Source: Cyanophora paradoxa CCMP329 | Taxonomy: Eukaryota > Plantae > Glaucophyta | Assembly (NCBI GenBank): GCA_004431415.1 | Contig: QPMI01000392.1 | Coordinates: forward strand, 21,168 to 85,167 | Direction: 5' to 3' | DNA length: 64,000 bases | Part shown: positions 35,101 through 61,300 of the stretch, piece by piece | Layout: each line of letters opens with the position of its first letter | Numbering within the stretch: position 1 is the stretch's first letter | Made by a program: the position numbers and the translations under genes | Notes under the pieces: generated by a model | What the model was told of the DNA's origin: nothing | The model's input: only the letters and a program-made list of their open reading frames with translations | The model's database searches: none

Positions 35101-35153
35101 TCCTCCCATCTTCCCCCTTGCAATATTAATTGATTGGAACGTGCATGTGCTCT

Positions 35154-36027: not shown

Positions 36028-36099
36028 GGGAATCCCAACCGCGGCCGGGAATCCCCCACGCTCCCGGGTCACCAAGGGAATCGTGGGTCTATAAAAGGG
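36028..36099 (+). promoter_or_regulatory. GGGAATCCC x2-3 + TATAAAAGGG
   Basis: Motifs at 36028, 36047, 36076; TATA 36090; duplicated at 38140-38211. Confidence 0.7.
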
Positions 36100-36205
36100 T
36101 TCGCGGCCGCTCCGGTCGGCATCGAGCGTCATTCGCACTCGCGGCCTCGCACGCGCACCCGAAAGCTTACACCAGCCCAGACCTAGACCGCCCCAGCGAT
36201 CGATC

Positions 36206-36817: not shown

Positions 36818-37449
36818 TCCTTTCCCTCTCCCTTCTTCCCCTTGGCCGTACCTGTACGCGTGGGGCCTCGCCTTTTCTCTCCAGACCCGCATGTATACGT
36901 ATATGTGTGTTGCGTGAAACAAACGTTGTAACTAATTTATAAACCGACCCGTACCAGTGTGAACCATTGAACGCTATATATAGCTACGTATACCCACACT
37001 GTGTGTGAGACTCAGAGAGTGATCATGGGAGGAAATCTAGAGACGATGCGAATTCGAAGAGCAAGAACGTTAACGGGTACGCGAGCTTAGGCCGTACCCG
37101 AAATCCGGAATCGGTCACACCGCCTACAACGTATATTTTACGTATATGTACGTATACTGCCGCAGTGCAGCCGCACGCCCCGCGCGCGATACCTCTGCCT
37201 TCTGTTATGCGTACTACGCTAGCTTTCGCTAGAATACGTTTACTAGTACGTATACGTTTACGTATGGAAGTACTGGTGCAAGCATGGGCATTGATATTCG
37301 CATGCATCCTTATGCATCGTGGCCATGGCGTGAAGCTTATATCGCCTTTGACGCAGAACCGTACATGTAATTATATCCAACCAAATGCAAGCTAATTACA
37401 AGCGTTACTGCCAAGCGCATGCATACGTATATGCGACCTCCCAATCGCC

Positions 37450-40787: not shown

Positions 40788-41355
40788 CTAGATCTTTGGA
40801 TGGATCGGGTGCGGTACCGGTGTCGCCGTCGTTTCTTTGGGTCGGCGCGCCCGAGTGACGAAATGGCGCCGCGCGATCCCTTTTGTCGGCCGCCGGGTTT
40901 TTCGTGAACGGGAATCCCGACCGAGGGGCCGGGGTGCGCATGCCGGAAGGAGCATACCCCTCAGGGCCTGTGCACTTGCACGTGACGCCGCGCCCCTTCA
41001 GGTCCGCGCCCTTTAATTTCCACCCTTGGCCGCGCCGCGAGAGGTCTCGAATTCATGTTTCGCGCGCAACGTGCGCGAGCCGCTGAGCGATTTTAAATTT
41101 CCTACGTATACGCACACATATACATCGCATGTAACGCATGTAACTTAAAGCTCAGTTTTATGTCCTTGGAACGTTAACTGATTTGATTACAAACATTATC
41201 GCTTCGCACATGGACTGACGGTCACTTTGCTGTTCCAAGCAAATCTCGTTCGATTCATGATATCGATCGGTATAGCTATCGATTATCATTTCTAGGTTTT
41301 TAGCTATTCGTATTCCACACCTGCACTGTGACAACTGCCGCTAACCTCTTTTCGG

Positions 41356-42327
41356 TCAAGGAGCGGTAACGAATTCTCCCAGATCGACGTCGTATATGTA
41401 GTTCATATAGCTGATCATGACGCCACCCCCGGCCGCCCCCGCGGCAGGCGCAGCCGGCGCGGTGGCATGCATATGCGCAGCCGGCGCGGTGTGCTGCTCG
41501 AACTGTCCGCGGCGGCGCTTGCGGTACTCCGCCGCCCTCTCGAGATTTCGTGCACGCCCCTCTGGATCGGGGATGCCGGCGCCGGCCTCATCGACCAGCC
41601 AGGCACGGATGTCGGCGGGGTCGAAGCGCTCCTCCAGCGTCTCCGGGTCGTAGCCGGCCGCGGCGAGGGCCCCGCGCGGACGGTGCTTCGTATTGCGGCG
41701 GGGGACGAGGTGGTAGCGCTTGACGATCTCCGCCATGGAGAGGAGGCCCGGGCGGGCGGGGAGGCCGCGGCGGCGCTCCCGCTCCCTGACGAGGGCGGCG
41801 TAGTTCGTTCGACCGGCCGCGTCGACGACTAGGTGCGGGATGGTGTTTCCGTAGAGCCCGTAATTGTCGTGGCTGTTCTTCGATTCATAAGAAATGGTGT
41901 AGATGCTGCTGATCGGGGTACGATCGCAGCGGGCGTCGGTGGAGCAGAGGCGCATGTTCAGGAGCGGGTCCATCACCATCGGCTCCTCGCTGGGCTTCCA
42001 GAAGCCGCGCTCAAAGCACAAGCGGCAGCGCGTCGCGAAAAAGCCGGCGTAGACGTTGTAGGCCGTCCCCGGCGGAGCGTCTTCGGGAACCACGATCCCG
42101 AGCTGCGTCTTGCACAGGGCCGCCCACTCGCCGTCGTCGTTTTTGACCAAGTCGCGAAAGCGGCGGTTCGTGGACCCCAGGGTGCGCTTGGCATCCCAGG
42201 GCCCGAGCCGCTTCGTTACCATGCGAAGGATCTCGTCGGGGAGGTCGGCGATCGACCTGGGCGCCGCCGGCTCGGAAAGGGGCGCCGCCGCCGCCGCCGC
42301 CGCCGCGTGCGTCGTCTCCGTGGCCAT
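41356..42327 (-). CDS. F-box protein, paralog of 39753-40787
   Basis: SIADLPDEILRMV..L..LGSTNRRFR..WAALC; ATAAAAGGG 42421, GGGA(A/T)TCCC 42458 and 42477. Confidence 0.85.
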   Translation of the reverse strand: MATETTHAAAAAAAAPLSEPAAPRSIADLPDEILRMVTKRLGPWDAKRTLGSTNRRFRDLVKNDDGEWAALCKTQLGIVVPEDAPPGTAYNVYAGFFATRCRLCFERGFWKPSEEPMVMDPLLNMRLCSTDARCDRTPISSIYTISYESKNSHDNYGLYGNTIPHLVVDAAGRTNYAALVRERERRRGLPARPGLLSMAEIVKRYHLVPRRNTKHRPRGALAAAGYDPETLEERFDPADIRAWLVDEAGAGIPDPEGRARNLERAAEYRKRRRGQFEQHTAPAAHMHATAPAAPAAGAAGGGVMISYMNYIYDVDLGEFVTAP

Positions 42328-42615
42328 CGGTATCTCTAGCGGTACGAGAATTGGTGGGGGGTGGGCGGCCTTTTCTCGGGCGATAGTGCACGCTCGTGTT
42401 GTGAGATGGCACCGCGCAACCCCTTTTATCGACCCCGCGGTCTCGACGGCTCGACCCGGGATTCCCGGCGCCGCCCGGGAATCCCTTGGCATTCTTCCCC
42501 CCTCCCCCCCTTCCACCCCCTCCACCCCGCGCCTGCATCTACCCCGTAACGTCTCGGGGGATCCTGAAGGCGCTTTGTTCGTCGTTGGAGAAAGAGGGAG
42601 AGGGGGTAGGGGGAT

Positions 42616-42648
<33 letters not shown>

Positions 42649-42675
42649 CGGGGGGGGGAGGGGGGGGGGTCCCGA

Positions 42676-44291
42676 TTAGGCGTCTGCAGGGGCGGCACCG
42701 GTACCCTCGGCCTCGTGTGCAGGAGCCTCGGGGGCGGTGCCGGGCTCCGGGGCCGGCGCCGGCGCGGCCGTCTTCGCCCCCGGAGGAGGGGAAGAAGAGA
42801 ACGAGTCGACGACGACGGCGGCGGCGGCGGCCTCGGCGGCAGCCTCGGCGGCGGCCTCGGCGGCGGCGCGGTCCTGGGCGTCGGGGTCGGCGGCGGCGGG
42901 GCCGCCGAGGGCGAGGGCGGCGGCGAGGGCGGCCCAGTAGATGGCGCTCGAGGCGCCGGCGGCCGGCGGGGTGAAGATCGGCTCCGGGCTCGGGTCCTCC
43001 TCCAGCGCCTCCTCGGCGTCCTCGACGCGGCGCCGCGCGGCGACGGCGGCCGCCTTGGCGGCGCGCGCGCGGGCGGCGCGCCGCTCCTCGGCCTCGAGCT
43101 GGCGCCGCGCCCGCTCCGCCGCCGCCCGCATCGAGGGCTCGAGCCCCGGGCGGCCCTTGCAGGCGGCGAGCTGCAGCTCCGCCCGCTCCGCCACCATCCG
43201 CACGTGGGCCGCCTCGGCGGCCGCTGCCTCGGGCCCCAGCTCGGCGGCGCGCGCCTCGAGCCGCTCGGCCCGCGGGCGCAGCGTCGACTGCAGCCGCTCC
43301 GCCAGCGCCTCCCGCGCCGCCGCCGCCCGGCGGTGCGCCGCCGCGCGCGCCCAGCGGGCCCGGATCGCCCGCTCCCGCCGCGTCACCGCCGGCGGGAGGC
43401 CGGCCGCGCGGCGCAGCTCGGTGCTGAGGGGCCGGTCCCCGGCCCCGCCCCGCCCGTGGGCGCGGTCCGTCGCCCCGTCGGCGTCGCTGCCGCACCCGTC
43501 CTCGTCGCCCCGCTCGTCGTTGCCTTCGTCGTCGTCCTCGTCGTCGTGCGAGCCGGGGCCCTGCGCGCGGGCCGGTCAGAGGGGACGAACCGGGCGGGGG
43601 AGGGAGGGAGGAGGGGGGGTCCGGCCCCACCTCGCGCTGGCTGCCGCCCCCCTCGCTGCCGCCGTCGTGGCCGGAGCCGTCCGAGCGCTCGCCCGCCGAG
43701 CCGGCGGCGTGCGCCTCTTCCGCGGCGCCTCTGGCGCCCCCCTCGGCGCCGCGACCTGTGCCCCGGGACGCCCATCGGCGCGGGCGGCCCTGGGAGGGGA
43801 AAGGGAAAGGGAGGGAGGGGGGGAGGGGGGGGTACGGGACGCACCGGCGCCGTCGGCAAAGAGCTTGGCGCGCTTCCCCGAGAGGGCGGCGGGGGTGCCG
43901 CCGGCCGTCCCGCGGGCTGCGCGGCGCGGGCGGGATGAGAGTTGGCCGGGGCGGTGAGAGAGGGGACCGCACCGCGGGGGCGCTTGGGCTTGCCGGGGGG
44001 CGCCGGCGGCGCGGCGGCCGCGGCGCCGGGCTCTGCGCCGGGGCGCCCCTCGGAGCCCCCGTCGTGCTCGCGCTCCTGCTGCTGCTCCTGCTGCTGCTGC
44101 TGCTGCTGCTGCGAGGCGGGCGCCCCGCCGGCGTCCTCGGCGGGTCCCTCGGTCGGCCCGCCGCCGCCGCCTCCGCCTCCACCGCCGCCGCCGCCGCGCC
44201 CGCCCTGCTTTGCCTTTTTGACGGCCGGGGAGCGCGCCGCCGCTGCCGCCGCTCCGGCGCCGCCGGAGTCCTCGATCGCGCGGCCCGGCAT
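42676..44291 (-). CDS. Multi-exon low-complexity / coiled-coil protein
   Basis: Three apparent introns (~43562-43630, ~43790-43843, ~43917-43972); poly-G/Q tracts; Ala/Arg/Glu-rich coiled coil. Confidence 0.5.
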
Positions 44292-44522
44292 GCTCTCGCC
44301 TGCGCAGACGCGGGCGTCGGTGCGGAGCGAGGGGGCCGGCGGGCGGGGTCGCCGAGGGGCGAGGGCGCGGGCGCGGGCGGCGCACCTGGGCGCGTCTGCG
44401 GGGGGTCGAAGGACCGCGATCCTTGGCCCGAGAGAGCGGCTGCCGGGTTCCCTTTAAGGCGGGCCGGGCCCAGCGGGCCGCCCCGTCGCGCGCGGGACCG
44501 CCGCATCTCCATCGAGCCGCCC

Positions 44523-44812
44523 GGCCGGTTCCGGGTAGGGTGCCGCTACCCCCCTCAGGGTCGTTCCTGCATTCCCCCGCCCCCGTCCCGAATCAGAAGG
44601 GGCGGGGCGGCAGAGGGGGTCTAGGGGGGAGGGGGCAGGGGCGCGGGGCGGCTCTGACCTCGCGACGGGTCGATTCGGGTTACGGTGCCGCTACCCCCCC
44701 TGAGGTCGGTTCCGCTGGGGCTCTGAAGCATGCCGAACCGCTTGAGCGAGCCGCCCCTCGCGAGGTGCCGCGGCGCAGGGAGGGCGTACACGGCCCGTAC
44801 CCGGAATCCGCC
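44523..44812. repeat. Degenerate sixth array: two B-like cores (+) and one A-like core (-)
   Basis: 44523 (23/30 match), 44668 (25/30), reverse 44783-44812 (23/30). Confidence 0.7.
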
Positions 44813-45762
44813 ACAGGGCCGTAGACCGCGCGCTGCGCGGGGGTACGGGGGGTTAGGGGGCGAGTGAGCGCGGCGCGAGGACGGCTGCGAGAGGGGCGGG
44901 CTGGGGAATTCTAGGAGCGCCGCCCCGCCGCACCCGGAAGATGCACGCACGCTCGGAATCGCTGAGCTCGCCGCGATCCGCGGCACTGCGGCTGCGCATG
45001 GCGGCGCGGGCGGTCGGACTGTTGCAGAGGCGGGGGCGGGGTTGGGGCCTCTGGATTGCCCCTCGCACCCGATTCCGCGGCGCCGAGCTTGGGCCTGCAG
45101 GACGGCGCCGCCGCCTTGCCGTCGACGGGGATCGGAGGAGCCGAGGCATGGGGGCGGGGGAGCCGCGCCGGCGCCGCGAGCTATGCCCCCGGCGGTTCGC
45201 CTGGACGGTAAGCGGAGCGCGCTGCACAGCTGGGTGCTGCTGTGCTGCTGTGCTGCTGTGTGTGCGGTCGTCGCCGGCGGCCGCGCGAGCTCGAGGCCTA
45301 GGGCGCACCAGCTAACCGGACGGAGCCTGGGCCTGGCGCAGAGGCAGTTCGAAGCAAGGTGCCCAGGCCGGCGGGCGGCCTGCTGGAGGGCGCCGCGAGG
45401 CTCGGCCCATCGCCCGCCATTCGCATCTGCGCTCGGCCGCGCCGGGCTGGAGGCACCCGCTCTCGCATAACGTCTCCAAATCCGATCGCAGAGCGCGAGC
45501 TGCGGCCCGCCGGCGCCGCTTGGGTCCCGGTCTCGAACACTGACCGACGTTGTCGCAACGTGGCTCCGCTTCCCCCCTCCCCCCTCTCCCCCCCCCAACC
45601 TCCCCCCCTCCTTTCTCCCCCCCCCCGTGCTTAAAGCCTCGTACCCGGCGAGCGCAGGCAGCATCGCGGGAGCGGCATCTCGCGCTTCTTGAAGGTTCTC
45701 CATCCGACTCTTCATCCGCTAGGCTAGCCTCGGGCGCGCGATCGCGGCCCGTCCTGCCTTCC

Positions 45763-46172
45763 TCACCCGACCTCGCCGCAGCCGCCCACGAGGCCCTCGG
45801 CGAGCCCAAACGCCAGGCCCGCGCTCGCACCCCCCTGCGCCATGTCCCGCATGGCGTGGAGCTTGCGCTTCGCGCCGCCGGAGCGCTTCTTGACGCGCAT
45901 CTCGAACGAACGCGCGCCGGCGGCGTCTGCAAAGCCCCACGCCGCAGCCACGAGTCGCCAGGGGCCCCTTCCGGCCGTGTACGCGCCCTTGATCGCCCCC
46001 GTTTGATGCTCCTTGAGCCGGCGCGCCAGGCAGCTGGTGGAGCCGGTGTAGGTCACGCCGGCGCCCGCCTTTTCGCTCTGGAGCAGGTACACGGCGTGCT
46101 GCGAGCCTGCGCGCTCCAGGATCGACTGCGTCGCCGCTGGAGTCGACGTCGGCGGCCCCGGTGCGTCCCCAT
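45763..46172 (-). CDS. SLX1-like GIY-YIG endonuclease
   Basis: AVYLLQS..TYTGST..RRLKEHQ.G..KGAYT..RGPW..GF...A..FE; ATG 46172 is in frame only if one G is missing from the adjacent G-run. Confidence 0.85.
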
Positions 46173-46381
46173 CGGTGCCGGCGTCGCACGCGCTCGCGCC
46201 CCGGCCCAGCACCCGCGCGCGCTGCAGCTAGCTTGCCGCCCCCCGTCTCCTCCCGCCGGCCTCTTTTTACGCACGCGCAGGTCGGCGGACCTCTTCGGCT
46301 CCCGGGCCGCGCCCAGCCCGCGCGCGCTCGATCTCTGCAGCTGGTGGGAGGCGGGGGCGGCTCGAGGGCGGCCGCAGGGGG

Positions 46382-49299
46382 CTACGCGGAGCGGGCCCCG
46401 CGCTTCGGCGGGCGGCCGCGCCGCGGGGGCCCGCGCTCGCGCTCCTCGTCGCGGGGCCGGGCCCGCGGGGCCGGCGGCGGCGCCGGCGGCGGCGGCGCCG
46501 ACGAGGAGGAGCCCAGGCCGAGCAGGTCGAAGATCCGCTCGCTCTTCGTCAGCACGTCGACGGCGCCGTTCCTCGACTCGCTCTGCACCGGTACGAGCGC
46601 CCGGGGCCGCCCCCAGTCGCCGGGCCCGCCCTCGGTTGACGGCGCGTACAGGGCCCCGAAGCGCCGGAGCACGACGAAGCGGTTCTCCGTCTCGCCCGAG
46701 GGGAGAGGCACCGTCGCGACGAGGCGGGCAAAGACGGGGCGCGGCAGGGGATCCGCCGCGTGCGAGGTGAGCGCCGCCACGACCTGGCCCGCCCGAAAGG
46801 GCGACGCCGACGTCCATCGCAGGTGCCAGAGCGGCCCGCGGGCCGCGGGGGGCTCGCCGCCGACCTGCTCTTCCCCCTCCCCCTCCTCCTCTTCTTCCTC
46901 CCCGTCCCCGCCCCGCCCGCGCCGCGCCACGTGGCCCCTGGACCCCCGCCGGCGGCCGCCCCGCCCCGCCCCGGCCCCTTGGCCGTGCGCCTTGGACGTC
47001 GCCCGGTGGCGCTGGTACCCCGCGGCGGTGCGGAAGATCTGTTCATGCGGGCGCTGCCGGGTCGGTCCGCGGGGCGGGGCGGGGCGCCCCGGGCGGCGGG
47101 CGCGACCCTCACCTTGACGCACGGCGCGCAGTACCTCCCCTCGGCGATCGCGAGGTCGCGCTCGACCTGCATCCCGGGCCTCGTGAACGGGTTCTGCTTC
47201 TGCCACGGGAAGCGCCTCCGCTTCTGCTCCGGCCCCTCTTCGCCGCCGCTCGAGGCCCCGCTCCCCGCGGAATCCTCGCCGTCTTCCGAGTACGAGCTCG
47301 CGCCCCCCGAGCGGCCCCGCCCGCTCTCGCCGTCGCTCTCCTCATCCTCCTCCGCAGGCCGCGGGGGCGCCGTCCTCCGCGCCGCGCGGCGCGGCGGCGT
47401 CGCGGTGGACGACGAGGAGGAGGAAGGGGGGGACGGGGCGCCGGCGCGGGGAGCCGGCTCGGGCTCGACGGCGGGCTGCGCGACCGGCACCCCCTCGTCC
47501 GGCCCGTCGGCGCCCCCGGGCGGCGGCGGCGGCGGCGGCGGCGGCGGGGGCCCGAGGCGGCCGAGGCCGGCGCGGACTCGGAGGGGCCGGCGGCCGGGGC
47601 CGGCGGGGGCGGGCCGGGAGGGGCTCGCGGGCGGCGCCCTCGGCCGCGCGGCGGGCGGCGTGCTGCTGGGCGGCCGTCTCGAAGAACGCGACGGCGGCGG
47701 CGGCCTGGCGGGCGCGGGCGCCGTAGTCGTAGTGCGTCGTCGCCGTCTGGACGCTGTGCTGCAGGAGGCGGGCCGTCCCCTCGATCACCGCCGCCGCCGT
47801 GTCCCCCTCGATCTGGTGCGCGGCGGCCCGCTCCCGCACGTAGGTCGTCAGGACGGCCCTCATGGCGCGCGCAGAGACCGGCTTGCCCGTCCACCGCTCC
47901 ATCACCTGCGGGCGCGGCGGGTGAGCCTCGGCGTGCCCCGTACCCCGCCGCCCCCGCCGGCGCGCCCCCGCGGCGCGCCCGCTTGACCCAGGCGCCGTAG
48001 CCGCTCTCGCTGAGGACGCCGCCGGCGGAGCTGGTGAAGAGCCACTGCTGGTCGGGGGCGCCGTCGGGGATGAGGAGGCGGCGGAAGCGCTCCACGAAGA
48101 GGGTGAGCGGCTCCTGCAGGACGGCGGCGACGGGGATCGAGAGGGCCCCGTGGAAGCGGGCCGTCTTGCTCGCGAGGGCCATCTCCCCCGTCCCGTCGTC
48201 CGCCCGCATCGAGTCGATGACGATGCACCACGCCCCCGCGTCGCGCCGCAGGCTCACCCCGATGCGCAGGCGGCGGATGATCCCGACGCGGGCCGGCGTG
48301 ACGGCGAGGAAGCCGAGGAGGCAGGCCTCGCGGAGGGCCTGGGCCCGCTCGTAGTCCGTCTTGGCGCCCTCGTACTGCTCGAGGGCGGCGAGCCGGGCGC
48401 CCAGGACCTGCTCGTACTCGACCCAGTTCTCGCCCCGCGGCCGCCACTTGCGCTCCTCCCGCTTCTCCTTTTCCAGCTGCGCCTGCGGGCGGGCGGGCGT
48501 CGGGTTCGTGCCCCCCGCCCGGCCCTCTTTCGCCCCCCCCCTCCTCTCTCTAGATTCCTCTCTCTCTCCCGCGCGCGAGCGCCTCTGACCTTGACGTTCT
48601 TCAGGGCGCGGGCGTGCGGCCCCTCGCTCCCCGTCGCGGCGCCCGTCCTCGAGTGCACAAAGGCGGCGGCCATGATGATCGAGCTGGTGTAGCCGCTCAG
48701 CGTCCCCGCGGTGAGCTTCCTCTCCTCCTTGAGAAACGTCAGGAACCGCATCCACAGGTCGACGAGGTCCCCCCGCGAGAAGACGTCGAACGAGAGCGGC
48801 CTGACCTCCTCCCTCGCCGCCAGGTACCCCAGGAAGCGTCCGACCGTCCCTGCGGCGGGCCTCGTGAGCCCCCTTTCCTTCGCCTCCAGCCCCGCCCATC
48901 ACCGCCGCCGCCGCGCCCGCTCACCGACGTCGTTCGTCAGGGCCGTGCTCCGCTCGACGGCCGCCCCCGCGCGGTCCGGGTTGATCGCCCTCGTCCTCCA
49001 CTCCTCAAAGAGCTTCATCTGCGCCCGCAGCTCGCGGCTCCACTCGGCCTCCGGCAGGGCGTACGGCTCCGGGCGCGACCGCCCGCCCTCTGCGGCGGCC
49101 CCCTCGCCCTCGCCCTCGCCCTCGCTCGCCTCCGGCGCCGCCGCCAGCTCCAGGCCCTCTGCCTCGCCGTCGGCGCCGCCGTCCGCGGCCCCGCCTTCGG
49201 CCTCGTCGGCCTCGTCGGACGGGGCGGACGAGGAGGACGAGGAGGAGGAGGAGGAGATGACCAGCGTCCCCCCGTCCGCCCGCCGGCGGGGCCTCTCCT

Positions 49300-49330
<31 letters not shown>

Positions 49331-51275
49331 CTCGCCCGCGGCGGCCGGCGGCGGGAGCGTCACGCGCTCCGGGTCGGCGACGTCGGCCTCGCAGAAGAGG
49401 TAGACGTCCCCGACGAGCGCCGACTCGAGCAGGCTCCGAAAGTGCTCCCTCTTTCCCGCGATAAAGCGCCCGTTGATCGCCTTTCTCTCCTCGTACGAGG
49501 GCGACTTGGTGCGCAGGTAGTGGATGGCGCCGGTGCGCAGCTCGTCGTCCCAGGGAAAGCCGAGGAGCGCCTCGCTCACCACGCTCTCCGCAAAGTAGAG
49601 GACCCCTGCGCGCGCGCGGCGGTGCGTCGGCTTCCCTTCCCTCTGCAGCGTACCCCTCGCTGAGAGGCGGCGGGGCGCGCACAGATGCCGCACTGGTACC
49701 CGTCGGCCTGCAGCCGCAGCTGCGTCTCGACCTCGAACTCAAAGCTCGGAAAGGCCTTCTTCGCCGCCCGCTCCAGCGACGGGTCCGGGCGCGCGCCCAG
49801 GCTGTCAAAGTAGCGGGTGCGGCGCAGGTCGCCGGAGATCACGAGGAGCGTCCAGTGGCCCCCCGCGCTCCAGGTTCGCTCCGACCCGCGCCGCACGAGC
49901 CCGCCCGAGACGGGACACAGGATGACGCGCCCCTCCTCCGCCGCCCCCAGGGCGCGGCGCCGGCGCTTCTCGGGGCTGGCGCGGGCGTGGCGGCGCAGGA
50001 GGCTCGTCGCAATGTCGAGCGTCATGGGGTACAGGGCCCGGACGCGGGGCGCCGCGCTGGCCCGCGCCAGCACGATCGAGAGGCAGTTGGCGATGTGCTG
50101 GTCCTGCCGCCGCCGCCCGCGCTGAGCGCTCCCGCACCCCTCCCCCCGCCCAGTCCCGCCCCGCGCGCCCCTCTGCTCACCGTGAGCCACTCGCGCTTCG
50201 TAAAGATGGCGATGCGGCGGGCAGGGGCGAGGGGCAGCGGGGCGGCGGCCTCGATCTCGGCGGCGTCGGCGCCCTCGAGGGCCAGGCGCTGGCGGCGGAA
50301 CGGCACGAGGAGCTCGTCGCCGAAGCGCGGCAGGCCCTGGAGGATCCTCTCGGCGCCGGCGAGGCTGATGAAGCCCCACTTGCGCGCCGCCCCGCGCGTC
50401 GCCTCGCCCTCGACCTCGGCGTTCAGCCCGGCGTACAGCGTCAGCGTCTGACCCCCCGGCCGCGGGCGGTCACGATCAGCCGGCGCTTGCAGCTGGCTGG
50501 GGAGGCGGGAGGCGGGCGCGCGCCTTGGTGAGGAGGGCGAAGCGGGCCCGCCCGACGACGTCGGTCCGCGCCTCGAAGCGAAAAGGCGAGTCGGCCCCGA
50601 GGTCGGGGTGCTTGCGCCTGATCTCGGCCCGCAGCGAGGGGACGTCCCGCGAGGAGCCGTACGCCGCCTGCGCGAGGGACGCGATGGGCGCGTACCACTC
50701 GACGTCCTGCGGCAGGGTGAGCGCGGGGCGGGGCGGGGCGGGGCGGGGCCGGGGGCGTCGCTCACGGGGACCTCGATGCGCTTGCAGCGGAGGGCAAAGA
50801 CGCGGGCGGCGCTGGAGGGCCCGAGGCGGAGGACGCGGAGCTCGACGCGCTCGAAGGACTCGAGCCGGCGGCGCTCGATCGCGGCGAGGATGTGGCGGGC
50901 GACGCACCGCTTCCGCGCGCTCACCCCGGGGTCCTCGTCCCACCGCTCGCACACGATCTGCTCGGCGTGGCGGAGCGAGACGACGCGCGGCGGGTTCCCG
51001 TCGGGCCGGTGCGCCCCGCGGCGGATCACGCCGAGCATCTCGAGCAGCAGGATCGTCTCCTCGCTCGCGACGGGCCTGCAGGGGACGCGGTACAGGTCCG
51101 CCAGCGCCCGGTCGGGGTCCTCCGGCGGCTCATCGGGGGCGTAGATGAGGATGCGGCGCAGCTCGGCGACGGGCACGACGAGGCCGGCGTCGGAGCGCAG
51201 CAGGATCAGGCGGTCCCGGCCCCACAGGCCGTCGAACTCGGCGACCTCGTAGGCGTCCTTGACCACGCTGAACAT
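46382..51275 (-). CDS. Multidomain tyrosine recombinase: Ski/Dach-like domain - ULP1 (C48) protease - YR - C2H2 finger - AT-hook
   Basis: Exons 51275-50766, 50706-50524, 50447-50181, 50103-49683, 49605-48925, 48849-48590, 48482-47979, 47905-47113, 47053-46382. ULP1: WLTDQHI, HWTLLVI, YFDSL, QADGYQCG. YR: PAR, SKT, RAMR, LQHS, THYD. The C-terminal extension needs two homopolymer corrections near 47550-47620. Confidence 0.8.
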
Positions 51276-52430
51276 CCCGCCCCGCCCGCCGCCCCGCCCC
51301 CTGCGCCTCCCCGCTCGCTCCCGTAGCCCTTCTATCAGCTCGGGCCCCTATATATGGCCGGCTCCGCCCCTCGCCCCGGCCTTGGCCGGCCCTCTCGGAG
51401 CCTCCGGGGGGCCTCGGGGCGCAGATTTGATCCGCCCCCGGCCGGCGCCACCGGCGCGCCCCGGCGCCGCGGGGAGCGCGTATTTAGCGTCTGCGAGTCT
51501 CGTAGTGTTCAAATAGAGCGCCGGTTCCATTCCACGGGCCTCTCCTGGCGAGTTGGGGGCGGGGGGGTCCCGGGGGGGCCTCCCCCCGAGACCCTAGGAT
51601 CGGCTCCGGGTATGGAACTGGTATTTTTTCCTGAGCCTCTGGGCCTCGGAGATGCCTTAAACGGCCTTGGTTCCGTTCGGGGGCCCCCGGAATAGCCTCC
51701 TTTGGGGGGGGTCCAGTTCTGGTGGCACCTTTCAATGGGGCCTCTGGCAACGCGGCCGGCGGGCTCGGCATGGAACAGAGTGCCTAAAACGCATTCTCGA
51801 TGCACTAGGAAGCGATTTACATCGTTAGTTCCCCGCGGTCCCGGTACCCGGGGTTTCGGCCGACCCCCGGCCGGGGCTTTTCGGTCGGACCTGGCGCGCC
51901 TGAGCCCCGCCCCGCGGGCCGAGGAGGCACGAATTCGCATCTGCAGTGAAGCCCGGGCTAATAGAGCGCTTCGTCTCTGCCGGAGCTCTCGTCGGGGGGC
52001 CCGAGCCCCGGGGGCGGGGCCCTGCGCCCTGGCGCGGCGCGAGCGCAGAGGCGGCTGCCGGGGATCGTTCCAAGCGTTCTTCTGATGCATTCCGAGCTAA
52101 TAGAACGCATCGTCTGCGGGCGTAAACGCCGGCGCCGGGCTCCCTGGCCTCGGGTCGGGACGGTTTCGAATACGCCCGGGGCCGCTTTCCGCTGTCGCTT
52201 GAGCTTGATGCAGTGCGTCCTGCACGCTCAGAGCGAGCTGCGCGGCGTGCTCGCGGCTGCGCCGGCGCCGGGCAGAATATAATTATAATCACGTGCCTGA
52301 ATTGGACCGTCGGACCTGCAGCCCAGCGGCTGCAGCTGGCGGTCGAGCAGATAAGCATGTCGTTCGCTTTTGATTAGTGCCCCCGGTGGCCCAGTGGCTT
52401 TCGACCCCCGCGGTCTACTCATATATAACA

Positions 52431-53514
52431 ATGCCCCGCATCAAGGTAGGAAAATGATCATGAAAGCCCGCTGAATTCATATCTGCGATTCTTAGTTCTT
52501 TCGAGTTCGTTGAACATTGTAATTATACTTTGCAGCAAACTGCCAAGCGTGGCACCGGAAACAAGGCCCCGCGAAAGGCATTCAAGAGCTCCGGCGCCAG
52601 CGGCCTCAAGACCAAAGCCGCGCGGAAAAAGGCTGTGGGCGAGGGCGGAGTGAGAAAGCCGTTCCGGTCGGCCTGCTCTCTTCCCTACGTTTTATTTTCA
52701 AGAGAAAGTCCCGGCACGTGAGAATCGCGCGCTCGCGCAGCCATCGCCCTGGGACGGTGGCAAAGCGCGAAATTGTGAAGTACGTTCAATGTTTTTATTT
52801 CACTCTTGTTCAAATCTATTTAAATCTAGATCTGAGACAAATAAATTCTGAATGAAACCCCGCTCCTGTTCAGGTACCAGAAGACCTACAATGCCCTCAT
52901 TCCGCTGGCCCCGTTCGGCCGCCTGGTACGTGTGGGGGCCCTTCAAAACTTGAAATTATCCTCTGCCGCCCGAGCCCTGTGCCCTGCTGTGCGGCGCGTG
53001 CACGTGCGCAGGTGCGCGAGCTCACGGCCGCGATGATCAAGGAAGACGTGGAGGCCGGTCTTCGTGAACAATCTGTCAACTTTCGGTTCACAAAGGTGCG
53101 CGCCCGTGCCGCAGTGCCGGGCGCGGGGGGGGTGCGAATAGCTGGCTGATTAATATTTCATGTCTTGCAGGACACTATCCGGGCCATTCGCGAGGCCGCC
53201 GAGGCGCACATCATTCGCTGGTTCGAGGGTGGTGTCCTCGCGGCCAAGCACCGCAAGCGAGTCACGGTCGGGTGCGCACGCGTAAGGTCTTGCCCTATTT
53301 TGATTACAAATGCCGCAGTGCCTCTTCCGTCCTTGATTATAACTATAAGCATGGCTTAAGCTCCCTCTGCCAGGCTGCTTCTTTAATTATAATGTCACGC
53401 TCGGATTGATGCTAATCGCGACTGTCCTAATCCTTGAATTTGGACAGCCCTGCAGACACGGATCTTGCGCGACGCTTGAAGGGAGACACGGCGGCCGACA
53501 CCGAGAGCGCCTGA
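52431..53514 (+). CDS. H3: Divergent histone H3 variant, 162 aa, 7 exons
   Basis: Exons 52431-52445, 52536-52666, 52741-52779, 52874-52925, 53012-53095, 53171-53271, 53448-53514 give MPRIKQTAKRGTGNKAPRK..KAARKK..GGVRKPFRHRPGTVAKREIVKYQK..PFGRLVRE..EAAEAH..HRKRVTVGPADTDLARRLKG. Confidence 0.92.
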
Positions 53515-53943
53515 AGCTTAAAATCGCGATAGAGACTCTGAGACAAATAGCTAGAATGCCGCCACCACGAGTTCTGGTCATGATCACGGTCACTTATTTA
53601 CCAAGTCAGTGATCATGAGCCGCCCTAGGCCTCGTCACGGCATGGCAGAATCGGGTGCTAAAGCTTGCAATCGATATCGATACTATGATAACACGTGAGC
53701 ACTGAGCGCAGAAAGTCACACGGATCATAAAAGCACACTACGTACTGCACAGATCAGAAATCTACAAGTCTAGAGCGCGGGGAACATCGCATCAAATAGT
53801 CAACTAGGGCCTAGCTATAGGCTTCACTCTAGATCTAGATCTTACTAAAGAGCCAGAAAGAGAGAGGGCCAGAGTATTTAGATGATTGAAACGAAAAGGT
53901 TGAACTCTAAACAGCGTATAACGTGTGCTATTTTCGTTGCCGG

Positions 53944-56268
53944 TCAGTCGCCTTTGGCGCTGGCCTCGCCGGCGCCTTCGGCGGCCCCTTCCTCGCCCGA
54001 CGCCTCGCTCTGCTCGTCCCCGTCCCCGTCCCGTCGCTCTCGCCGGCCTCCCGAAGCTCCAGCACCGAGCCGTCAAAGACAAAGCCCTTGGCGCGCTGCA
54101 CCTCTTCCGCGAGCCGCTCCCGGATCTGGTCCGCCCCTCTTTCGTGCAGCCCTTCAGGAGCGGGAGGCAGCTGACAAAGTCGACGACCGATATGCCGCTC
54201 CCGCAGACGCGCGCAAGGCCAGGGAACCTCGTGAGCGTCTCTCCCAGCGCGCGGAGGTCGTTGTAGATCTCGGACTGCGCGAGCCTCGAGTGAGCGACGT
54301 CGAAAGCTCGCCGGGCCGGGTACGCGTGCTCGCGGCTGCAGCTAGGGGCCCGCCCCCGCACCCTCCTCCCGCAAGGGAATTCGAAGCGACCTCACCTTTT
54401 GGGCGCTGACCTCGAGGCGAAAGCCGGCCGCCTGGAGGATGGCGTCGTACTTGGCGCAGAGGTGCTCGGCGCGGTAGGCGCCCCAGAGGCGGCGGTTGCG
54501 GCCGTAGCGCTCCGTGTAGGCCTGGTGGACGGCGAGGACGGAGCAGGCGATGAGCATGATGCAGCGGATCCGCTCCCGCCCGCCTCTTCGATGCGGTTCA
54601 GGAGGGCCGCGCGGGCCTCCGGGCTGGCGTCGATCTGGCGCCCGATGAGCCCCGGGTCGATCCCCGCCTCGAGCCCAAAGTCGTAGGCCTCCAGCGACTC
54701 TGGGTCGAGCCCGCCCTCGCCCTCGCCCCCGCCCCCGGCGGGGCCCTCGGCGAGCTCGTCGGCGTCGTCCGCGCCGCCCTCGGCCCGCTCCGCCTCGGCG
54801 AGGGCCTTGCGCCAGCGCTCCGCGAGCTCCTTGCCCCGCGGGTCCGGCGAGCCGGCGCGCGAGCCGTCCTCCTCGCTGCCCGAGCCGCCGCCGCCGCCCC
54901 GCCGCCCTCGGGCCCGGCCTCGATGGCGAGGGGGCCGCCGCCGCCTTGCCCTTGCCCTTGCCCTTGCCGCCGCCGCCGCTGCTGCCGCCGCCGCCGCCGC
55001 CGCTCCCGGCCGAGCTGCCCCCTCCGACTCGGAGCGCGCGTCCTCGTCCTTGGGGCGCGTGTACGCGTTGTAGAGGACGCGGATGAGCTTGTCCGACTCC
55101 CACTCCTTGCGGCGGTCGCGCCCGGCGCCCCACTTGCTCCGCGCCGCCCGCCGCGCCGGCTTCGAGGGGCCGGCGCCCGAGCCGGACCCGGGGCCGGCGC
55201 CCTGCGCCGAGGCCGACGCCGACGCCGCCTCGGGGTCGGGGGAGCTCGCCGGCTTGGGCGGGCGCAGCGTCTTGCGCCGCTCCAGCGCCCGCTCCTCGGC
55301 GCCGTCCTCCCCCTCTTCCTGCTCGGCCGCCGACTCGCCCCGCGCCGGGCCCTTGGTCGACGTCGCGGCGCGCTTGGCGCGCGATCGCGAGGGCCGGCGG
55401 CCGGCCCCTCCTCCTCCTTCTCCTCCCCTCCTCCTCGGCGGCCGGGCCCGGGCCCGAGGCGGCGCCCTTTTCCTTGCGCTTCTTGCCGCCCTGGGCCTTG
55501 GCGCCCGCGGCCGGCTCCCCCGGGCCAGGGGGGCGGCCGCCGGCGCCGGCGGCTGGGCGGCGGGCGCGGATCCGTCGGACGGGGCGGCGGCTCCGGGGCC
55601 AGAGCCAGAGCCCGAGCTCGGGCCCGCCCCGGCGGGGGCCGCGGGGGCCGGGGGCGGGCCGCCGCCGCCGGCGGCGGCGGGGCGCGGGCCTCGGCGGCGG
55701 CCGCCTGGAAGCGCTCGAGGGCGTACGTGAGCGCCGTGCGGAGGCAGAGGTCGCCGGAGATCCACGAGGCGGCAAAGGCGGCGTCGTCGATGTAGGCGAG
55801 AAAGGAAAAGAGGGCGTCGATGCGGGAGCTGCAGACGAGGCCCGAGGCGGCCGGGTGGGGTCGCCGCAGCTGGGGCAGGTGAAGAGGGGCGGCGAGGCGC
55901 CGCCCTCGGCGCTGACGGAGAGGAGGGTGAGGGCGCAGCTGAGGCAGACGAACGAGCCGGTCGAGTTGAACTTGAGGTCGTCGAGGGCGGGGCGCGGGTG
56001 CGCGTCGAGGGCCTCGTTGACGGACGAGGCGCCGGTCTTGGCGAGGAGGCGGGCGGCGGCGCAGGAGAGGAGGATCGGGGGGAGGATGCGCTCCGACTTG
56101 CAGCGGGCGCAGGCGGGGCGGCAGGAGAGGAGCGGGTCCCGCCCAGGCTGATGAACGCGGGAGGCTGACCTTGGCCGGCCGCGAGTCGAGGGGCGGGCAG
56201 CCGGACGCGCCGCCCGCCGCGCCCCGCGGGCTCGTCACCTGGGCCCCCGACGCCGGCTGCGACGCCAT
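53944..56268 (-). CDS. Cys-pair / low-complexity / helical-domain protein, paralog of 7688-10505 (several apparent frameshifts)
   Basis: CARC..CLSC..CPSC; RCIMLIACSVL..LWGAYR..; LGETLTRFPGLARV; intron from 54395; TATA ~56352. Confidence 0.6.
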
Positions 56269-56559
56269 CGCCGGAGGCAGGGGGGAAGGAGGAGGACCCC
56301 GGCAGAAGGGGCCTGCGGGTCTCGTCGGGAGGATCGGGGGGCCGGCGACTCCTATATATGCCCCATCGGGGCCCGCCGGGATGGGCAAAAGCGGGCAGAC
56401 GGGGCGGCGGGGGTGAGGGGAGGGGTACGGTGGGAAGGACGCGTGCCGGGGCGGGGCGGCGGCCGGCGGTGGGCGATGGCCCCGCGGGCCCCAACGACGG
56501 CGCGCGGGCCCCGCGGTGGGCGCCGCGAAACGGCGCCCGCCGAGAGTCGTCCGGTTTTG

Positions 56560-58400
56560 ACCCGCCCGGTCGATTCCGGCTACGGCGCCTGTACCCCTGG
56601 GGCGGCCCGCGAGCCCGCGGTGAGACGAGGCGAGCGGCGGGGGGCGGGGCGAGCGGGGGTACGGACGGACCGGGCCCGCCGCTTATGGCCCGCCTGGTCG
56701 ATTCCGGCTACGGCGCCTGTACCCCTGGGCGGGCCGGCAAGCACGTCGGTGAGACGAGGCGAGCGGCCAGAGGGTGCAGGGGAGCGGGGTACGGACGAAC
56801 CGGGCCCCGCCGCTTATCGCCCGCCTGGTCGATTCCGGCTACGGCGCCTGTACCCTGGGCCGGCCCGCGAGCCCTCGGTGAGACGAGGCGAGCGGCCAGA
56901 GGGTGCAGGGTACGGACGAACCGGGCCCGCCGCTTATGGCCCGCCTGGTCGATTCCGGCTACGGCGCCTGTACCCCTGGCGGGCCCGTGAGCTCTTCGGT
57001 GAGACGCGGCGAGCGGCCAGAGGGTGCGGGGAAGCAGGGGTACGGACGGACCGAGCCCCGTCGCTTATGGCCCGCCTGGTCGATTCCGGCTACGGCGCCT
57101 GTACCCCTGGGCGGACCGCGAGCTCTCGATGAGACGAGGCGAGCGGCCAGAGGGTGCGGGGGAAGCGGGGTACGGAGGAACCGAGCCCCGCCGCTTATCG
57201 CCCGCCTGGTCGATTCCGGCTACGGCGCCTGTACCCCTGGGCGGGCCCGCGAGCTCTCGATGAGACGAGGCGACCGGCCAGAGGGTGCGGGGAAGCGGGG
57301 GTACGGACGAACCGAGCCCCGCCGCTTATCGCCCGCCTGGTCGATTCCGGCTACGGCACCTGTACCCCTGGGCGGGCCCGCGAGCCCTCGGTGAGACGAG
57401 GCGAGCGGCCAGAGAGTGCGGGGGAAGCGGGGGTACGGACGAACCGAGCCCCGCCGCTTATGGCCCGCCTGGTCGATTCCGGCTACGGCGCCTGTACCCC
57501 TGGGCGGGCCCGCGAGCACGTCGGTGAGACGAGGCGGCGGTGCGCGAACTCTCTGTGAGATGGGGGCGAGCGGTCGGAGGGTGCGGAAGCGCGCGAAGGG
57601 GTGGGTCGAGAGGAAAGGCAAACGACAGCGTTAGCAGGGGTACACGCACCGTAGCCGGAATCGACCAGGCCGCCCCTACTGCGGGCCAGCGCCGCGGGCC
57701 GGACGGGGCGCCGAGTGAGCGAGGGCGGGGCGCGGAGAGGGCGCGTTGTGGGGTACACACGCCGTAGCCGGAATCGACCAGGCCGCCCCTACTGCGAGCC
57801 TGCTGCTGCGGGTCGAACGGGGCGCAGGGTGAGCGAGGGCGGGGCCACGCGAGGGGTCGAGAAAGGGGGGCACACACGCCGTAGCCGGAATCGACCAGGC
57901 CGCCCCTACTGAGAGCCAGCTGCTGCGGGCCGGACGGGCCGCCGAGTGAGCGAGGGCGGGGGGCGGAGAAGGCGCGTTGGGGGGTACACACGCCGTTGCC
58001 GGAATCGACCAGGCCGCCCCTACTGAGAGCCAGCTGCGCGGGCCGTACGGGCCGCCGAGTGTGCGGGGGCGGGGGGCGCTCGAAGGGGGCGAGAGGCCAA
58101 GGGGGGTACACACGCCGTTGCCGGAATCGACCAGGCCGCCCCTACTGCGAGCCTGCTGCTTCGGGCCGTACGGGTCGTCGAGTGAGCGAGGGAGGGGCGC
58201 TCGAAGGGGGCGAGAGACCTAGGGGGGTACACACAGCGTAGCCGGAATCGACCAGGCCGCCCCTACTGAGAGCCTGCTGCTGCGGGCCGTACGGGCCGCC
58301 GAGTGAGCGAGGGCGGGGGCGCTCGAGGGGAGGGGGGGGGGGCGAGAGACCTAGGGGGGTACACACAGCGTAGCCGGAATCGACCAGGCCGCCCCTACTG
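56560..58400. repeat. Bipartite array 4: 8 B units (+), then 7 A units (-)
   Basis: B cores 56568-57500; reverse A cores 57637-58385; degenerate core ~58490. Confidence 0.96.
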
Positions 58401-59537
58401 CGGGCCAGCGCTGCGATCGCTCTGGGTGAGCGATGGCGGGCGCGGACAAGGCGAGGAGCGCGGGCCGGTGGGGGAGGGAAAAAGAGCGGGGTGGACCGGC
58501 CGTACCCGGAATCGGCCCGATCGCTCTTCCGCGCCCCCGCGTGGGGTACGAGGCTCGTACGCGCCCGCCCAGCAGCGCTAGCGCCCCTCGAGCGCCGAGC
58601 CTGCCGAGGCGATGAGCACCGCACCGAGCTCGAGAGCTCGACGGGAAGAAAGGGAACCGGTCGAGGGGGTGCGCGGGCGCACTCCCCACGAGGCCCCGGG
58701 CGCTCTTGGCTCGCCCAGCGGGCCGGCTGCCGAGGGCTTGGCGTGGGCGGGGAAGAGGATCCAGAGGGGGCGCTCGAAGCGGGCGAGGCGCCGGGCCGCG
58801 CTCACCCTCGCGATGGACGCCCCGCCGCCGCTTGCGCCGCCGCCGCCGCAGGGCATCGGCCGGCTCCCCGTGCCGACCGACGTCCCGGCGCCCGGCCTCG
58901 CCAGGCCGCTGCCGCGCGTCCCGCCACCCGAGCAGGCGGCCCCGAAGCGCACCAAGCGATCCGCTCTGGGCGACGGGGCGCCGCGGCCCGGCGCCGAGGC
59001 CTGGGCCGGTTGAGCGCCGGCCGGCTCCGGCGGGGCGGGCCCGGCCGGGGCGCGCGGGCGCGCGTAGGTATGAGCCGCTTTGGATTCGAACTGTACGCAG
59101 GAAGAGCTCGCGGGCGCGCAGAAACTTAATCCGGCGTCGGCGCCCTGCGGGGCGAGGGACAGAGGCACGTCAGCCGCAGCGGACTCCGGGATCGAAAGTT
59201 GCATGCGGGCCGCGGCCGCCGAGCAGGCTAGGACGAAAGGGAGGCGCACGAGCCGCGCGGGTAGCTGGAACCGCCCGAGGCGTGGCTCTCTCGGGAGAGC
59301 AGAAGGGAGGCTCGCGGCTCGGGCGCGACAGAGCGCCGCACGAGCAGCTCGTGGTCCGCTGCTCTCTGTGCGTGGGATCGCTGTGGTTTTCTCTGTGTCT
59401 GTTTTTTTGCGACCAAGTGTACCCCGCAGATTCGCCGCAGCAGTGTTGCAAGCTGCAGCCAGCTGCCGCCGCAGCCCCCCGCGCGCGTTCTCGCAACGCT
59501 GGCCAGCAGAGCCTTCATGCGCATGCGCAGCTCTTTC

Positions 59538-59695: not shown

Positions 59696-60184
59696 TCGAC
59701 GAGGCCACGGCCACTGCTAGCTATTGATCTCCAGCGGCCCTCTGACGCTTCTACGACCCGACAACCCCACGGATGCGTGTCCCGTCGCACAGGCTGGGCG
59801 TCACGGCGACCCTCGGCGGCCGCGGCGCTCGTGCGGCTACGCAGATGCAGCCGGCGCCCAAGGCGCACTTGTGGAGGTTCTCCGAGATTTAAACGCGCGC
59901 GCCGCAGCGCGGCCGGCCCCGGCGCGCCGCCGGCGCGCATCCGGCCATCGATCGGGCACGCCGCGTGCGGTGCGCAGCGTGCGGACCCGCGCGCTTCTCC
60001 GCCACACCCTCGCGAAGCGCTACGCGGGGTGGAGTGCGGGCGCGCCGGTTCCAGCGAGCAAGACGATCACCGAGTCGGCCGGCACCGCGCTCGGTCCGCC
60101 CCTCGCGGCTGCAGCGAGCCCCGCCTCCTTTTCCTCGGCCCGCTGCCACGCTCCGCGCGCCGCGGCGGCCCCTCGTGCGCCCCC

Positions 60185-61300
60185 GCCTTCGCTCACTCGG
60201 CAGCCCGTACGGCCCGCGGCAGCTGGCTCGCAGTAGGGGCGGCCTGGTCGATTCCGGCTACGGTGTGTGTACCCCCCTAGGCCTCTCGCCCCCTTCGAGC
60301 GCCCCCGCCCCCCGCTCACTCGGCGGCCCGTGCGGCCCGCAGCAGCTGGCTCGCAGTAGGGGCGGCCTGGTCGATTCCGGCTACGGTGTGTGTACCCCTT
60401 AGGCCTCTCGCCCCCCTTCGAGCGCCCCCGCCCTCGCCCACTCGGCGGCCCGTACGGACCTGCAGCGCTGGCCCGCAGTAGGGGCGGCCTGGTCGATTCC
60501 GGCTACGGTGTGTGTACCCCCCAACGCGCCCTCTCCGCGCCCCGCCCTCGCTCACTCGGCGGCCCGTACAGATCGCAGCGCTGGCCCGCAGTAGGGCGGT
60601 CTGGTCGATTCCGGCTACGGCGTGTGTACCCCCTGCTGACGCTGTCATTTGCCTTTCCTCTCCACCCACCCCTTCGCGCGCTTCCGCACCCTCCGGCCGC
60701 GTGCCACCGTCTCACCGAGAGCTCCCGGTCCGCCCAGGGGTACAGGCGCCGTAGCCGGAATCGACCAGGCGGGCCATAAGCGGCGGGGCTCGGTTCGTCC
60801 GTACCCCCGCTCGTCCCGCCCCCCCGCCGCTCGCCTCGTCTTACGGACGGGGCGAGCGGGCCGTCCAGGGGTACAGGCGCCGTAGCCGGAATCGACCAGG
60901 CGGGCCATAAGCGGCGGGGCTCGGTCCGTCCGTACCCCCTCTTCCCCCGCCCCCCGCCGCTCGTCCCCGTCTCATCGAGAGCTCGTGGGCCCGCCCAGGG
61001 GTACAGGCGCCGTAGCCGGAATCGACCAGGCGGGCCATAAGCGGCGGGCTCGGTCCGTCCGTACCCCCGCTCTCCCCGCGCCCCCGCCGCCCGCCTCGTC
61101 TCACCGAGAGCTCTCGGACCCGTCCAGGGGTACGGGCACCGTAGCCGGAATCGACCAGGCGGGCGATAAGCGGCGGGGCTCGGTTCGTCCGTACCCCCGC
61201 TCTCCCTGCCCCCCTGCCGATCGCCTCGTCTCACCGAGAGCTCTCGGGCCCGTCCAGGGGCACCGGCGCCGTTGCCGGAATCGACCAGGCGGGCTATCTG
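60185..61300. repeat. Bipartite array 5: 4 A units (+), then 5 B units (-)
   Basis: A cores 60247, 60369, 60491, 60603; reverse B cores 60737-61286. Confidence 0.95.

Follow-up and report, generated by a model that had tools for sequence, protein, structure and literature searches.

Introduction

Replacement variants of histone H3 can be without a regulatory residue of the canonical protein, as in Arabidopsis, where H3.15 and H3.10 are without one modification site, K27. Introns and a setting outside the histone clusters are typical of replacement variants, and H3 chaperones discriminate between H3.1, H3.3 and CENP-A in the alpha1/L1-alpha2 region. Here, a divergent H3 paralogue, encoded by a gene whose genomic surroundings are unusual, is described from the glaucophyte Cyanophora paradoxa CCMP329. 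The gene, whose product is named H3x, lies in a 64,000-nucleotide stretch of GenBank assembly GCA_004431415.1 (contig QPMI01000392.1, positions 21,168 to 85,167 of the forward strand), hereafter the window, and all coordinates are those of the window. H3x shares with the Arabidopsis variants an H3-like tail, a loss of regulatory residues that looks targeted and an intron-containing, expressed gene, but K9, S10, S28 and K36 are lost together, the fold is strongly diverged and the pattern of loss is not beyond chance.

The centromeric variant, CenH3 or CENP-A, has a tail that cannot be aligned with that of H3, and the CENP-C-binding CenH3 tails of human and yeast are hydrophobic. H3x is like CenH3 in its longer alpha1/L1 region, the loss of Q68, a fold about half identical to that of H3, introns in a gene outside the clusters and a changed C-terminus, whereas its tail is clearly H3-like and its C-terminus acidic. 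The 12-residue insert in its fold exceeds the inserts known from CenH3 proteins.

Selfish DNA can also exploit a CenH3-type nucleosome. The yeast 2-micron plasmid, which has inverted repeats and the Flp recombinase, recruits Cse4 to its partitioning locus, and this combination of a tyrosine recombinase, inverted repeats and a CenH3-type nucleosome is a parallel to a reading of H3x as part of a mobile element. However, the plasmid borrows host Cse4 and encodes no histone, whereas the H3x locus is chromosomal and any partitioning role is putative. Lastly, clandestinovirus has an H3-like gene, which is intronless. As described by Talbert et al. 2022 (PMC9145170), the product has a fold around 43% identical to that of cellular H3, a longer loop 1 and several modifiable tail lysines. 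H3x shares the longer loop 1 and a tail that keeps modifiable lysines, but the clandestinovirus gene is viral, whereas the H3x gene is interrupted by six introns, encodes a longer tail insert and lies in GC-rich nuclear DNA.

Results

H3x is a spliced and expressed gene

H3x is a real, spliced and expressed gene. Three-frame translation of positions 52000-54000 yielded H3-like peptides separated by short GT-AG intervals, and the exons were joined by their coordinates:

52431-53514, plus strand: H3x gene, with exons at 52431-52445, 52536-52666, 52741-52779, 52874-52925, 53012-53095, 53171-53271 and 53448-53514

The coding length is 489 nt, that is, 162 codons and a stop, and the product is a histone H3 paralogue of 162 amino acids. 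The six introns counted in the first-pass annotation of this DNA were recovered, each of them GT-AG and 74-176 nt long. Five (introns 2, 3, 4, 5 and 6) are base-exact in spliced contigs from two RNA-like runs of two studies, X15 and X16: X15 contigs skip introns 2, 4, 5 and 6 and X16 contigs skip introns 2 and 3, with one X16 contig reading through into intron 4. The four best RNA-like runs were mapped to 52250-53750, and the other two, X17 and X18, cover the locus only from 53468 and 53490 onward. No listed run is recorded as RNA; the spliced form is taken to be RNA because the DNA runs carry the intron-containing form. Exon 1, intron 1 and the start codon lie outside RNA coverage and were assigned by homology (PRIK/QTAK fits an H3 start), and no transcript 5' end was seen in the RNA-like contigs of 52250-53750. 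The first-pass annotation had made its reading depend on expression, and H3x was found both transcribed and spliced in X15 and X16.

The only differences listed between the RNA contigs and the window are at 52956 (intron 4) and 53707 (3' region). Contigs from all four RNA-like runs are present downstream of the H3x stop (53468-53750 and beyond), and one X15 contig joins exons 4-7 to around 570 nt past 53750, crossing the stop of the convergent neighbour gene; this read-on is either a long 3' untranslated region of H3x or an overlap of convergent transcripts. A search of public runs returned 24 from one organism, 20 of them with at least part of the locus, from 16 studies. In 14 DNA-type runs half or more of the words of the locus are present, the fraction being 0.74-0.88.

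The tail and fold of H3x

Both an H3-type N-terminal tail and a recognisable histone fold are present. The tail was compared with canonical H3 in two ways, by PDB alignment of exon 2, which aligns to H3.1 residues 5-38 (PDB sequence search, E 1.1e-3), and by a script alignment to canonical H3 in stored proteins, and both agree. Over canonical residues 1-40 the two tails are identical at 26 positions (65%). The substitutions are A1P, T3I, R8K, K9R, S10G, G13N, Q19A, A21K, S28K, K36R and H39F, plus three at 30-32, while lysines K4, K14, K18, K23, K27 and K37 are retained. The first-pass annotation had read K9R, S10G, S28K and K36R in a tail that keeps K4, K14, K18, K23 and K27, together with an eight-residue tail insertion, an elongated loop 1 region and a change of Q68 to G; the two alignments confirm the tail residues, and alignment to canonical H3 confirms the rest. 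The tail insert reads FKSSGASG.

The fold is less conserved than the tail, with 50 of 95 residues identical to canonical H3 over positions 41-135 (53%). Changes include Y41H, K64L, Q68G, C110A and K122A, the Q68 position lying in PFGRL instead of PFQRL, and the interval between alpha1 and alpha2 is 12 residues longer, exon 5 supplying 28 residues across H3 71-86. The C-terminus is 6-7 residues longer than that of H3 and ends in the acidic DTAADTESA. Among the residues kept are K56, H113, K115, R116, T118, D123, R128 and R129. Exon 6 alone matches the Pfam family Histone (PF00125; E 4.4e-5, 24.2 bits), a score for a 33-residue piece that lies below the whole-protein cutoff of 26.4, and among PDB H3 chains it finds matches at E 1e-3 over H3 residues 89-119. 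A 23-residue stretch of exon 4 extended into intron 4 had no match in the PDB.

With 14 of the 40 tail residues changed, about 2.8 of the 8 tail lysines would be expected to change by chance and 2 were observed to do so; the joint loss of K9 and K36 is therefore statistically unremarkable, and the set of lost sites is within the overall divergence of the tail. Lost sites that fit random divergence are also what would be seen if H3x were a transcribed but functionless H3 duplicate drifting to decay, and the repeat-rich region and the failure to find an orthologue or annotation (below) point the same way. Nevertheless, the key residues of the fold are kept, and seven exons with an intact frame and correct splice sites are found in an error-prone assembly, with the RNA contigs in agreement, so that decay is decidedly improbable as an explanation.

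Relatives of H3x in Cyanophora paradoxa and beyond

The public protein sets searched appear to have no annotated H3x. Exon 2 was compared with 5.8 billion proteins and gave 13 candidates, none at E <= 0.01, and exon 6, compared with 1.84 billion representatives, gave 7 proteins at E <= 0.001, none of them H3x-like, although a short single-exon query makes either result weak evidence. The seven exon 6 matches were five gene models with at least two canonical H3 copies and two unrelated repeat proteins. A literature search joining Cyanophora, histone H3 and histone variants found no paper. No other histone-fold gene was found in the window by a Pfam scan of 459 open reading frame (ORF) translations. 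These comprised 259 of the 273 ORFs of at least 130 amino acids, the other 14 lying within satellite arrays, and 200 of the 245 ORFs of 45-129 amino acids in low-GC islands; the 45 small ORFs excluded include five at 23037-23467, those within the second copy of a 1-kb repeat, and most at 51487-53695.

The first-pass annotation had asked whether H3x could be the single CenH3 of the host. Five C. paradoxa sequences are filed as CenpA in supplement 3 of van Hooff 2017 (PMC5579357), and H3x is not among them. Four of the five keep PFQRL in near-canonical folds and the fifth, with PFARL, is chimaeric, its model being joined to an MCM-like protein, so the true C. paradoxa CenH3 is not settled by these entries. 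Four begin with MARVK, MPRVK or MVRVK, the other (CPAR004798) being a fragment that starts inside the fold. The start of H3x, MPRIK, is close to these, which suggests that H3x originated within the H3 family of the host. To judge from these sequences, the host looks to have a family of divergent H3 paralogues, of which H3x would be a very diverged member. In the same supplement, the CenpA-filed paralogues resemble H3x in their starts and non-canonical tails, but their loop 1 and alpha2 are near-canonical, whereas H3x has G68, 12 extra residues and a far more diverged fold.

It is conceivable, though somewhat unlikely, that H3x is the organism's true CenH3, missed by annotation, in which case a dedicated chaperone would read the altered L1-alpha2 region and deposit H3x at centromeres, where it would seed the kinetochore. 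The 12 extra alpha1/L1 residues, Q68G, the 53% fold identity and the longer C-terminus would all fit, as would an intron-bearing, expressed gene, and none of the five entries filed as CenpA in that supplement is a convincing alternative. Against this, the tail is alignable to H3 at 26 of 40 residues and is better conserved than the fold, the opposite of known CenH3s, the C-terminus is acidic and not hydrophobic, and the locus is within a block that recurs in the assembly (below). The long loop 1 and loss of Q68 had been put forward as CenH3 hallmarks; both are present in H3x, but CenH3 is not alone in having a long loop 1, which is also reported for the giant-virus H3-like protein (PMC9145170).

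H3x is flanked by a recombinase-type gene and lies in an apparently recurring block

The neighbours of H3x are as follows:

45796-51275, minus strand: multi-exon gene, public model P0001, 1517 amino acids (protein mapped to the window)

51276-52430, no strand: intergenic region of 1,155 bp between divergent start codons, GC falling from around 0.75 to around 0.45 toward H3x

53944-56268, minus strand: convergent neighbour gene, public model P0004, 669 amino acids (protein mapping)

The divergent orientation of H3x to a tyrosine recombinase gene, as first annotated, holds as an arrangement: the start codons of H3x and P0001 are head-to-head with 1,155 bp between them, P0001 starting at 51275, while the identity of the recombinase is only probable. 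The coding pieces of P0001 on the minus strand run in shifting frames and encode, in order, an N-terminal domain, a Ulp1/C48-like protease, a probable tyrosine recombinase, a zinc-finger-like stretch and a GIY-YIG nuclease. The nuclease is of the SLX1/UPF0213 type (Pfam 4.6e-7; PDB 1zg2 1.5e-8) and the protease matches ChlaDub2 in the PDB (6.3e-4) and Pfam C48 at 0.0052, below cutoff. The recombinase part had no sequence match in Pfam, PHROGs, NCBIfam or PDB; its motifs were picked out by eye only (ARVGIIRRLR, RAMR and LLQHSVQTATTHY). By language-model features, the clusters nearest to a 150-residue piece of P0001 (0.95-0.96) have Phage_integrase in 13-25% of members, and residues 678-1001 are nearest to Preplasmiviricota clusters (0.96-0.97), in one of which 16% of members have Phage_integrase. 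An AlphaFold2 single-sequence model of the region (mean predicted local distance difference test score 42.5) was too poor and was not used.

P0001 had no match in viral contigs and no PHROGs hit. Three metagenome loci match only its protease part, at 30-35% identity, and there is no H3-like sequence on them. One of these, contig Ga0207128_1019 (L003; 45.7 kb, 0.42 GC), has two tandem Ulp1-like segments at 10001-10965 that are 34-35% identical to the P0001 protease, and no H3-like sequence on the stretch examined. Among the 459 ORF translations, Pfam detected no reverse transcriptase and no capsid, packaging ATPase or other viral gene, although capsids of this kind are poorly covered by Pfam.

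Some CryptonF and CryptonS elements are described as combining a recombinase with a C48 (Ulp1) peptidase (Kojima & Jurka 2011, PMC3212892), and genes for a recombinase, a cysteine protease and a GIY-YIG nuclease are common in polinton-like viruses and virophages (PMC12220804). P0001 shares with the C48-bearing Cryptons the probable tyrosine recombinase and the Ulp1-type protease, and neither a reverse transcriptase nor terminal inverted repeats were identified. It differs in being a single spliced model of 1517 amino acids that also has a GIY-YIG nuclease, with no defined ends or short terminal direct repeats, and in place of the R-H-R-Y tetrad of Cryptons, the H is apparently replaced (RAMR). 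A histone gene in or beside a Crypton is absent from the portion of PMC3212892 consulted.

Other contigs of the assembly carry copies of both genes that flank H3x, with 99-100% identity. The 150-residue piece of P0001 recovered two proteins among 6,185 candidates: P0001 itself (100% identical; EukProt, contig tig00020509), which is the window's own gene, and P0002 (901 amino acids, 99% identical) on contig tig00021535. P0004, a protein of no known family whose N-terminus is Cys-rich and zinc-finger-like, recovered four proteins among 6,852 candidates. These were P0004 itself, the window's own convergent gene on tig00020509; P0003 on tig00000923, identical to P0004 at 236 of 237 positions over the C-terminal half; P0005 on tig00021536; and P0006 on tig00021535. 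Contig tig00021535 therefore holds homologues of both flanking genes (P0002 and P0006), and the shared stretch covers at least 48003-58856 of the window, spanning H3x. To judge from these matches, the block around H3x measures at least 10.8 kb and appears to be either repeated or redundantly assembled, and the synteny of both flanking genes means that H3x would be expected on tig00021535 too.

Read depth and variants were compatible with more than one copy. Depth over H3x was like that of the flanks in all four DNA runs (in X1, 314-319 vs 250-274), so H3x is not a rare insertion. At some positions of the recombinase-type gene, among the differences listed, a variant letter made up around one third to one half of total depth in DNA runs; this fits two to three near-identical copies, although the same picture could arise from heterozygosity or from overlap of contigs. 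Six-base insertions at 52203 (CTTGAT) and 53601 (CAATTG) are present in X5 and X4 and absent in X1 and X7, and the H3x locus therefore exists in two or more haplotypes, strains or copies.

The assembly itself is imperfect. At no fewer than eight sites the window is without one base carried by all four DNA runs (53330 in intron 6, 54029, 54133, 54344, 54578, 55856, 56141 and 56158), and such single-base deletions break the reading frames of GC-rich genes; an 'intron' of P0004 at around 54582 that skips only 2 nt is an assembly error in the public gene model. P0002, P0005 and P0006 contain frameshift-like stretches, and the extra contigs could be redundant, poorly polished assemblies of one locus. 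DNA reads over 40500-56500, where low-complexity GC-rich stretches gave more than 1,000 spurious joints and loose ends, showed no joint by which the block would be cleanly deleted, and the block yielded no element ends, no target sites and no presence/absence polymorphism.

This setting raises the question of whether H3x is cargo of a recombinase-bearing element that is Crypton-like or derived from a polinton-like virus. H3x could then form nucleosomes on the element that are proof against K9/K36 methylation or, as a CenH3 mimic, let the element or its arrays hitch-hike in segregation. The head-to-head arrangement with a recombinase-type gene at a distance of 1,155 bp, the presence of P0002 and P0006 together on tig00021535, with a shared stretch that runs across H3x, the variant letters, the composition of H3x, which differs from that of its flanks, and the description of Cryptons with a C48 peptidase (PMC3212892) are all consistent with such an origin. 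However, H3x itself was seen on no contig but its own, the other contigs may represent a single locus, assembled redundantly or with many errors, the recombinase call comes from language-model features and motifs only, and neither ends, target sites nor presence/absence polymorphism came to light. A histone also acts in trans, and protection of the element would need a cis-targeting step. K-to-R does not poison methyltransferases as K-to-M does. Cargo is accordingly considered unlikely.

The composition of H3x differs from that of its neighbours

Most 2-kb bins of the window have a GC content of 0.72-0.80, and the H3x bin is the lowest at 0.56. GC at third codon positions (GC3) is 0.75 in H3x, 0.96 in the recombinase-type gene and 0.99 in the downstream gene, and introns of H3x have a GC content of 0.33-0.64 vs 0.78-0.88 in the recombinase-type gene. 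AT-rich stretches also occur elsewhere in the window, so low GC is not unique to H3x; the contrast with the flanking genes may reflect a different history or a different mutational or expression regime.

AT-rich motifs of the intergenic region include TAATTATAAT at 52280. This motif or a close variant occurs four times in non-coding parts of H3x, at 52280 (promoter), 52519 (intron 1), 53336 and 53384 (both intron 6), and TCTGAGACAAATA occurs in intron 3 (52831) and in the 3' region (53537). The exact words AATTATAAT and TCTGAGACAAATA have no further occurrence in the 64 kb. A 90-nt tRNA-Ala(GGC) called by ARAGORN at 51994-52083 is probably a false call in GC-rich sequence; Rfam gave it no support, and the Rfam scan returned no match at gathering score.

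Lower GC3 and AT-rich non-coding parts against an extremely GC-rich background might also be left by an endogenised viral H3, from a giant virus or a polinton-like virus, that gained its introns later. The clandestinovirus protein, with its long loop 1 and partly conserved tail lysines (PMC9145170), and the mention of polinton-like viruses of C. paradoxa (PMC12220804) would fit this origin, as would the nearness of the P0001 recombinase region to Preplasmiviricota clusters by features. Nonetheless, six spliceosomal introns, a tail 65% identical to that of cellular H3 whose first residues resemble host variants, the absence of a capsid, ATPase or other viral gene among the ORF translations scanned and a P0001 that is without a match in viral contigs make a viral source very improbable.

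Satellite arrays and other features of the window

Satellite arrays are found on both sides of the H3x locus:

Around 56551-58416, no strand: two satellite arrays with units of around 130 and 121 bp, adjoining the convergent gene and inverted relative to the arrays at 24714-28349

24714-28349, no strand: left satellite arrays, with 124-bp units at 24714-26184 and 130-bp units at 26205-28349, 82-84% identical, in inverted orientation, to 56551-58416

P0005 and P0006, the convergent-gene copies on two other contigs, carry the same arrays within their gene models: they begin with residues that map to 58856-58617 of the window and continue into satellite units in translation (AVAGIDQAG...). The satellites belong to two families, whose units measure around 124 and 130 bp and have a common core of around 30 nt (GGTCGATTCCGGCTACGG...) in opposite orientation. 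They are located at 11364-12669, 24714-28349, 35149-35509, 56561-58415 and 60169-61294, with paired head-to-head arrays at four places.

Two direct repeats at 36013-37074 and 38125-39204, around 1,060-1,080 bp long, 97.7% identical and around 1 kb apart, lie in a low-GC island; they are LTR-like (resembling long terminal repeats), but neither the repeats nor the interval that separates them gave a match to a protein family. A RING-finger ORF (34324-35097, plus strand; Pfam zf-C3HC4_3, 7.3e-7) and an F-box ORF (41359-42675, minus strand; Pfam 9.1e-5) were also identified. The RING-finger, F-box and GIY-YIG matches are the only ones at or above the curated Pfam score among the translations scanned.

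Discussion

The explanation tentatively favoured here, which falls somewhat short of probable, is that H3x is a lineage-specific replacement H3 variant of the host and not a tool of the neighbouring mobile-type gene. Its H3-like tail, intact fold core, introns, expression, presence in DNA runs and host-like N-terminus support such an origin. H3x would be expected to pair with H4 because it keeps residues of the H3-H4 fold and of the H3-H3' interface (H113, K115, R116, T118, D123, R128 and R129), and it would then replace H3 in a minority of nucleosomes. Since the altered alpha1/L1-alpha2 region lies where chaperones discriminate between H3 variants, the 12-residue longer alpha1/L1 and changed alpha2 may give H3x its own deposition pathway and so allow it to mark a special chromatin domain. 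In such a domain, the tail could carry marks at K4, K14, K18, K23 and K27, whereas K9 and K36 methylation and S10 and S28 phosphorylation would be missing.

Several observations weigh against a host variant. Both flanks of H3x are genes that recur at near-complete identity elsewhere, as would be expected of element cargo; the composition of H3x is sharply unlike that of both neighbours, hinting at a separate history; the long L1 and the missing Q68 are hallmarks of CenH3; and no H3x orthologue that would attest its conservation as a host gene was found in either protein library. The first-pass annotation, which proposed silencing resistance or CenH3 mimicry, is partly supported by the data: its premises hold, while both functional readings are putative.

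In its fullest form, the alternative would be a glaucophyte selfish element, bearing a recombinase, that carries and expresses its own H3, without K9/K36 methylation or mitotic phosphorylation and with a CenH3-like fold, and so gains either silencing-proof chromatin or, via its inverted arrays, a segregation handle like that of the 2-micron plasmid. This is improbable. We know of no other mobile element that supplies a core histone itself, and if H3x were cargo, a core histone encoded by a transposon would be on record from a cellular genome for the first time. The manipulation by selfish DNA of its own nucleosomes would then become directly testable. Should H3x instead be the CenH3 of C. paradoxa, its alignable H3 tail would set it apart from every CenH3 of which we know a description, and published orthology tables would be corrected.

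If H3x is a replacement variant of the host, it would be an unannotated member of the poorly known chromatin toolkit of the glaucophytes, one of the three primary plastid lineages. It would also provide a natural H3-like tail without K9, S10, S28 and K36 on a CenH3-like fold, a combination of use in asking which part of the histone determines where it is deposited and which determines how it is marked.

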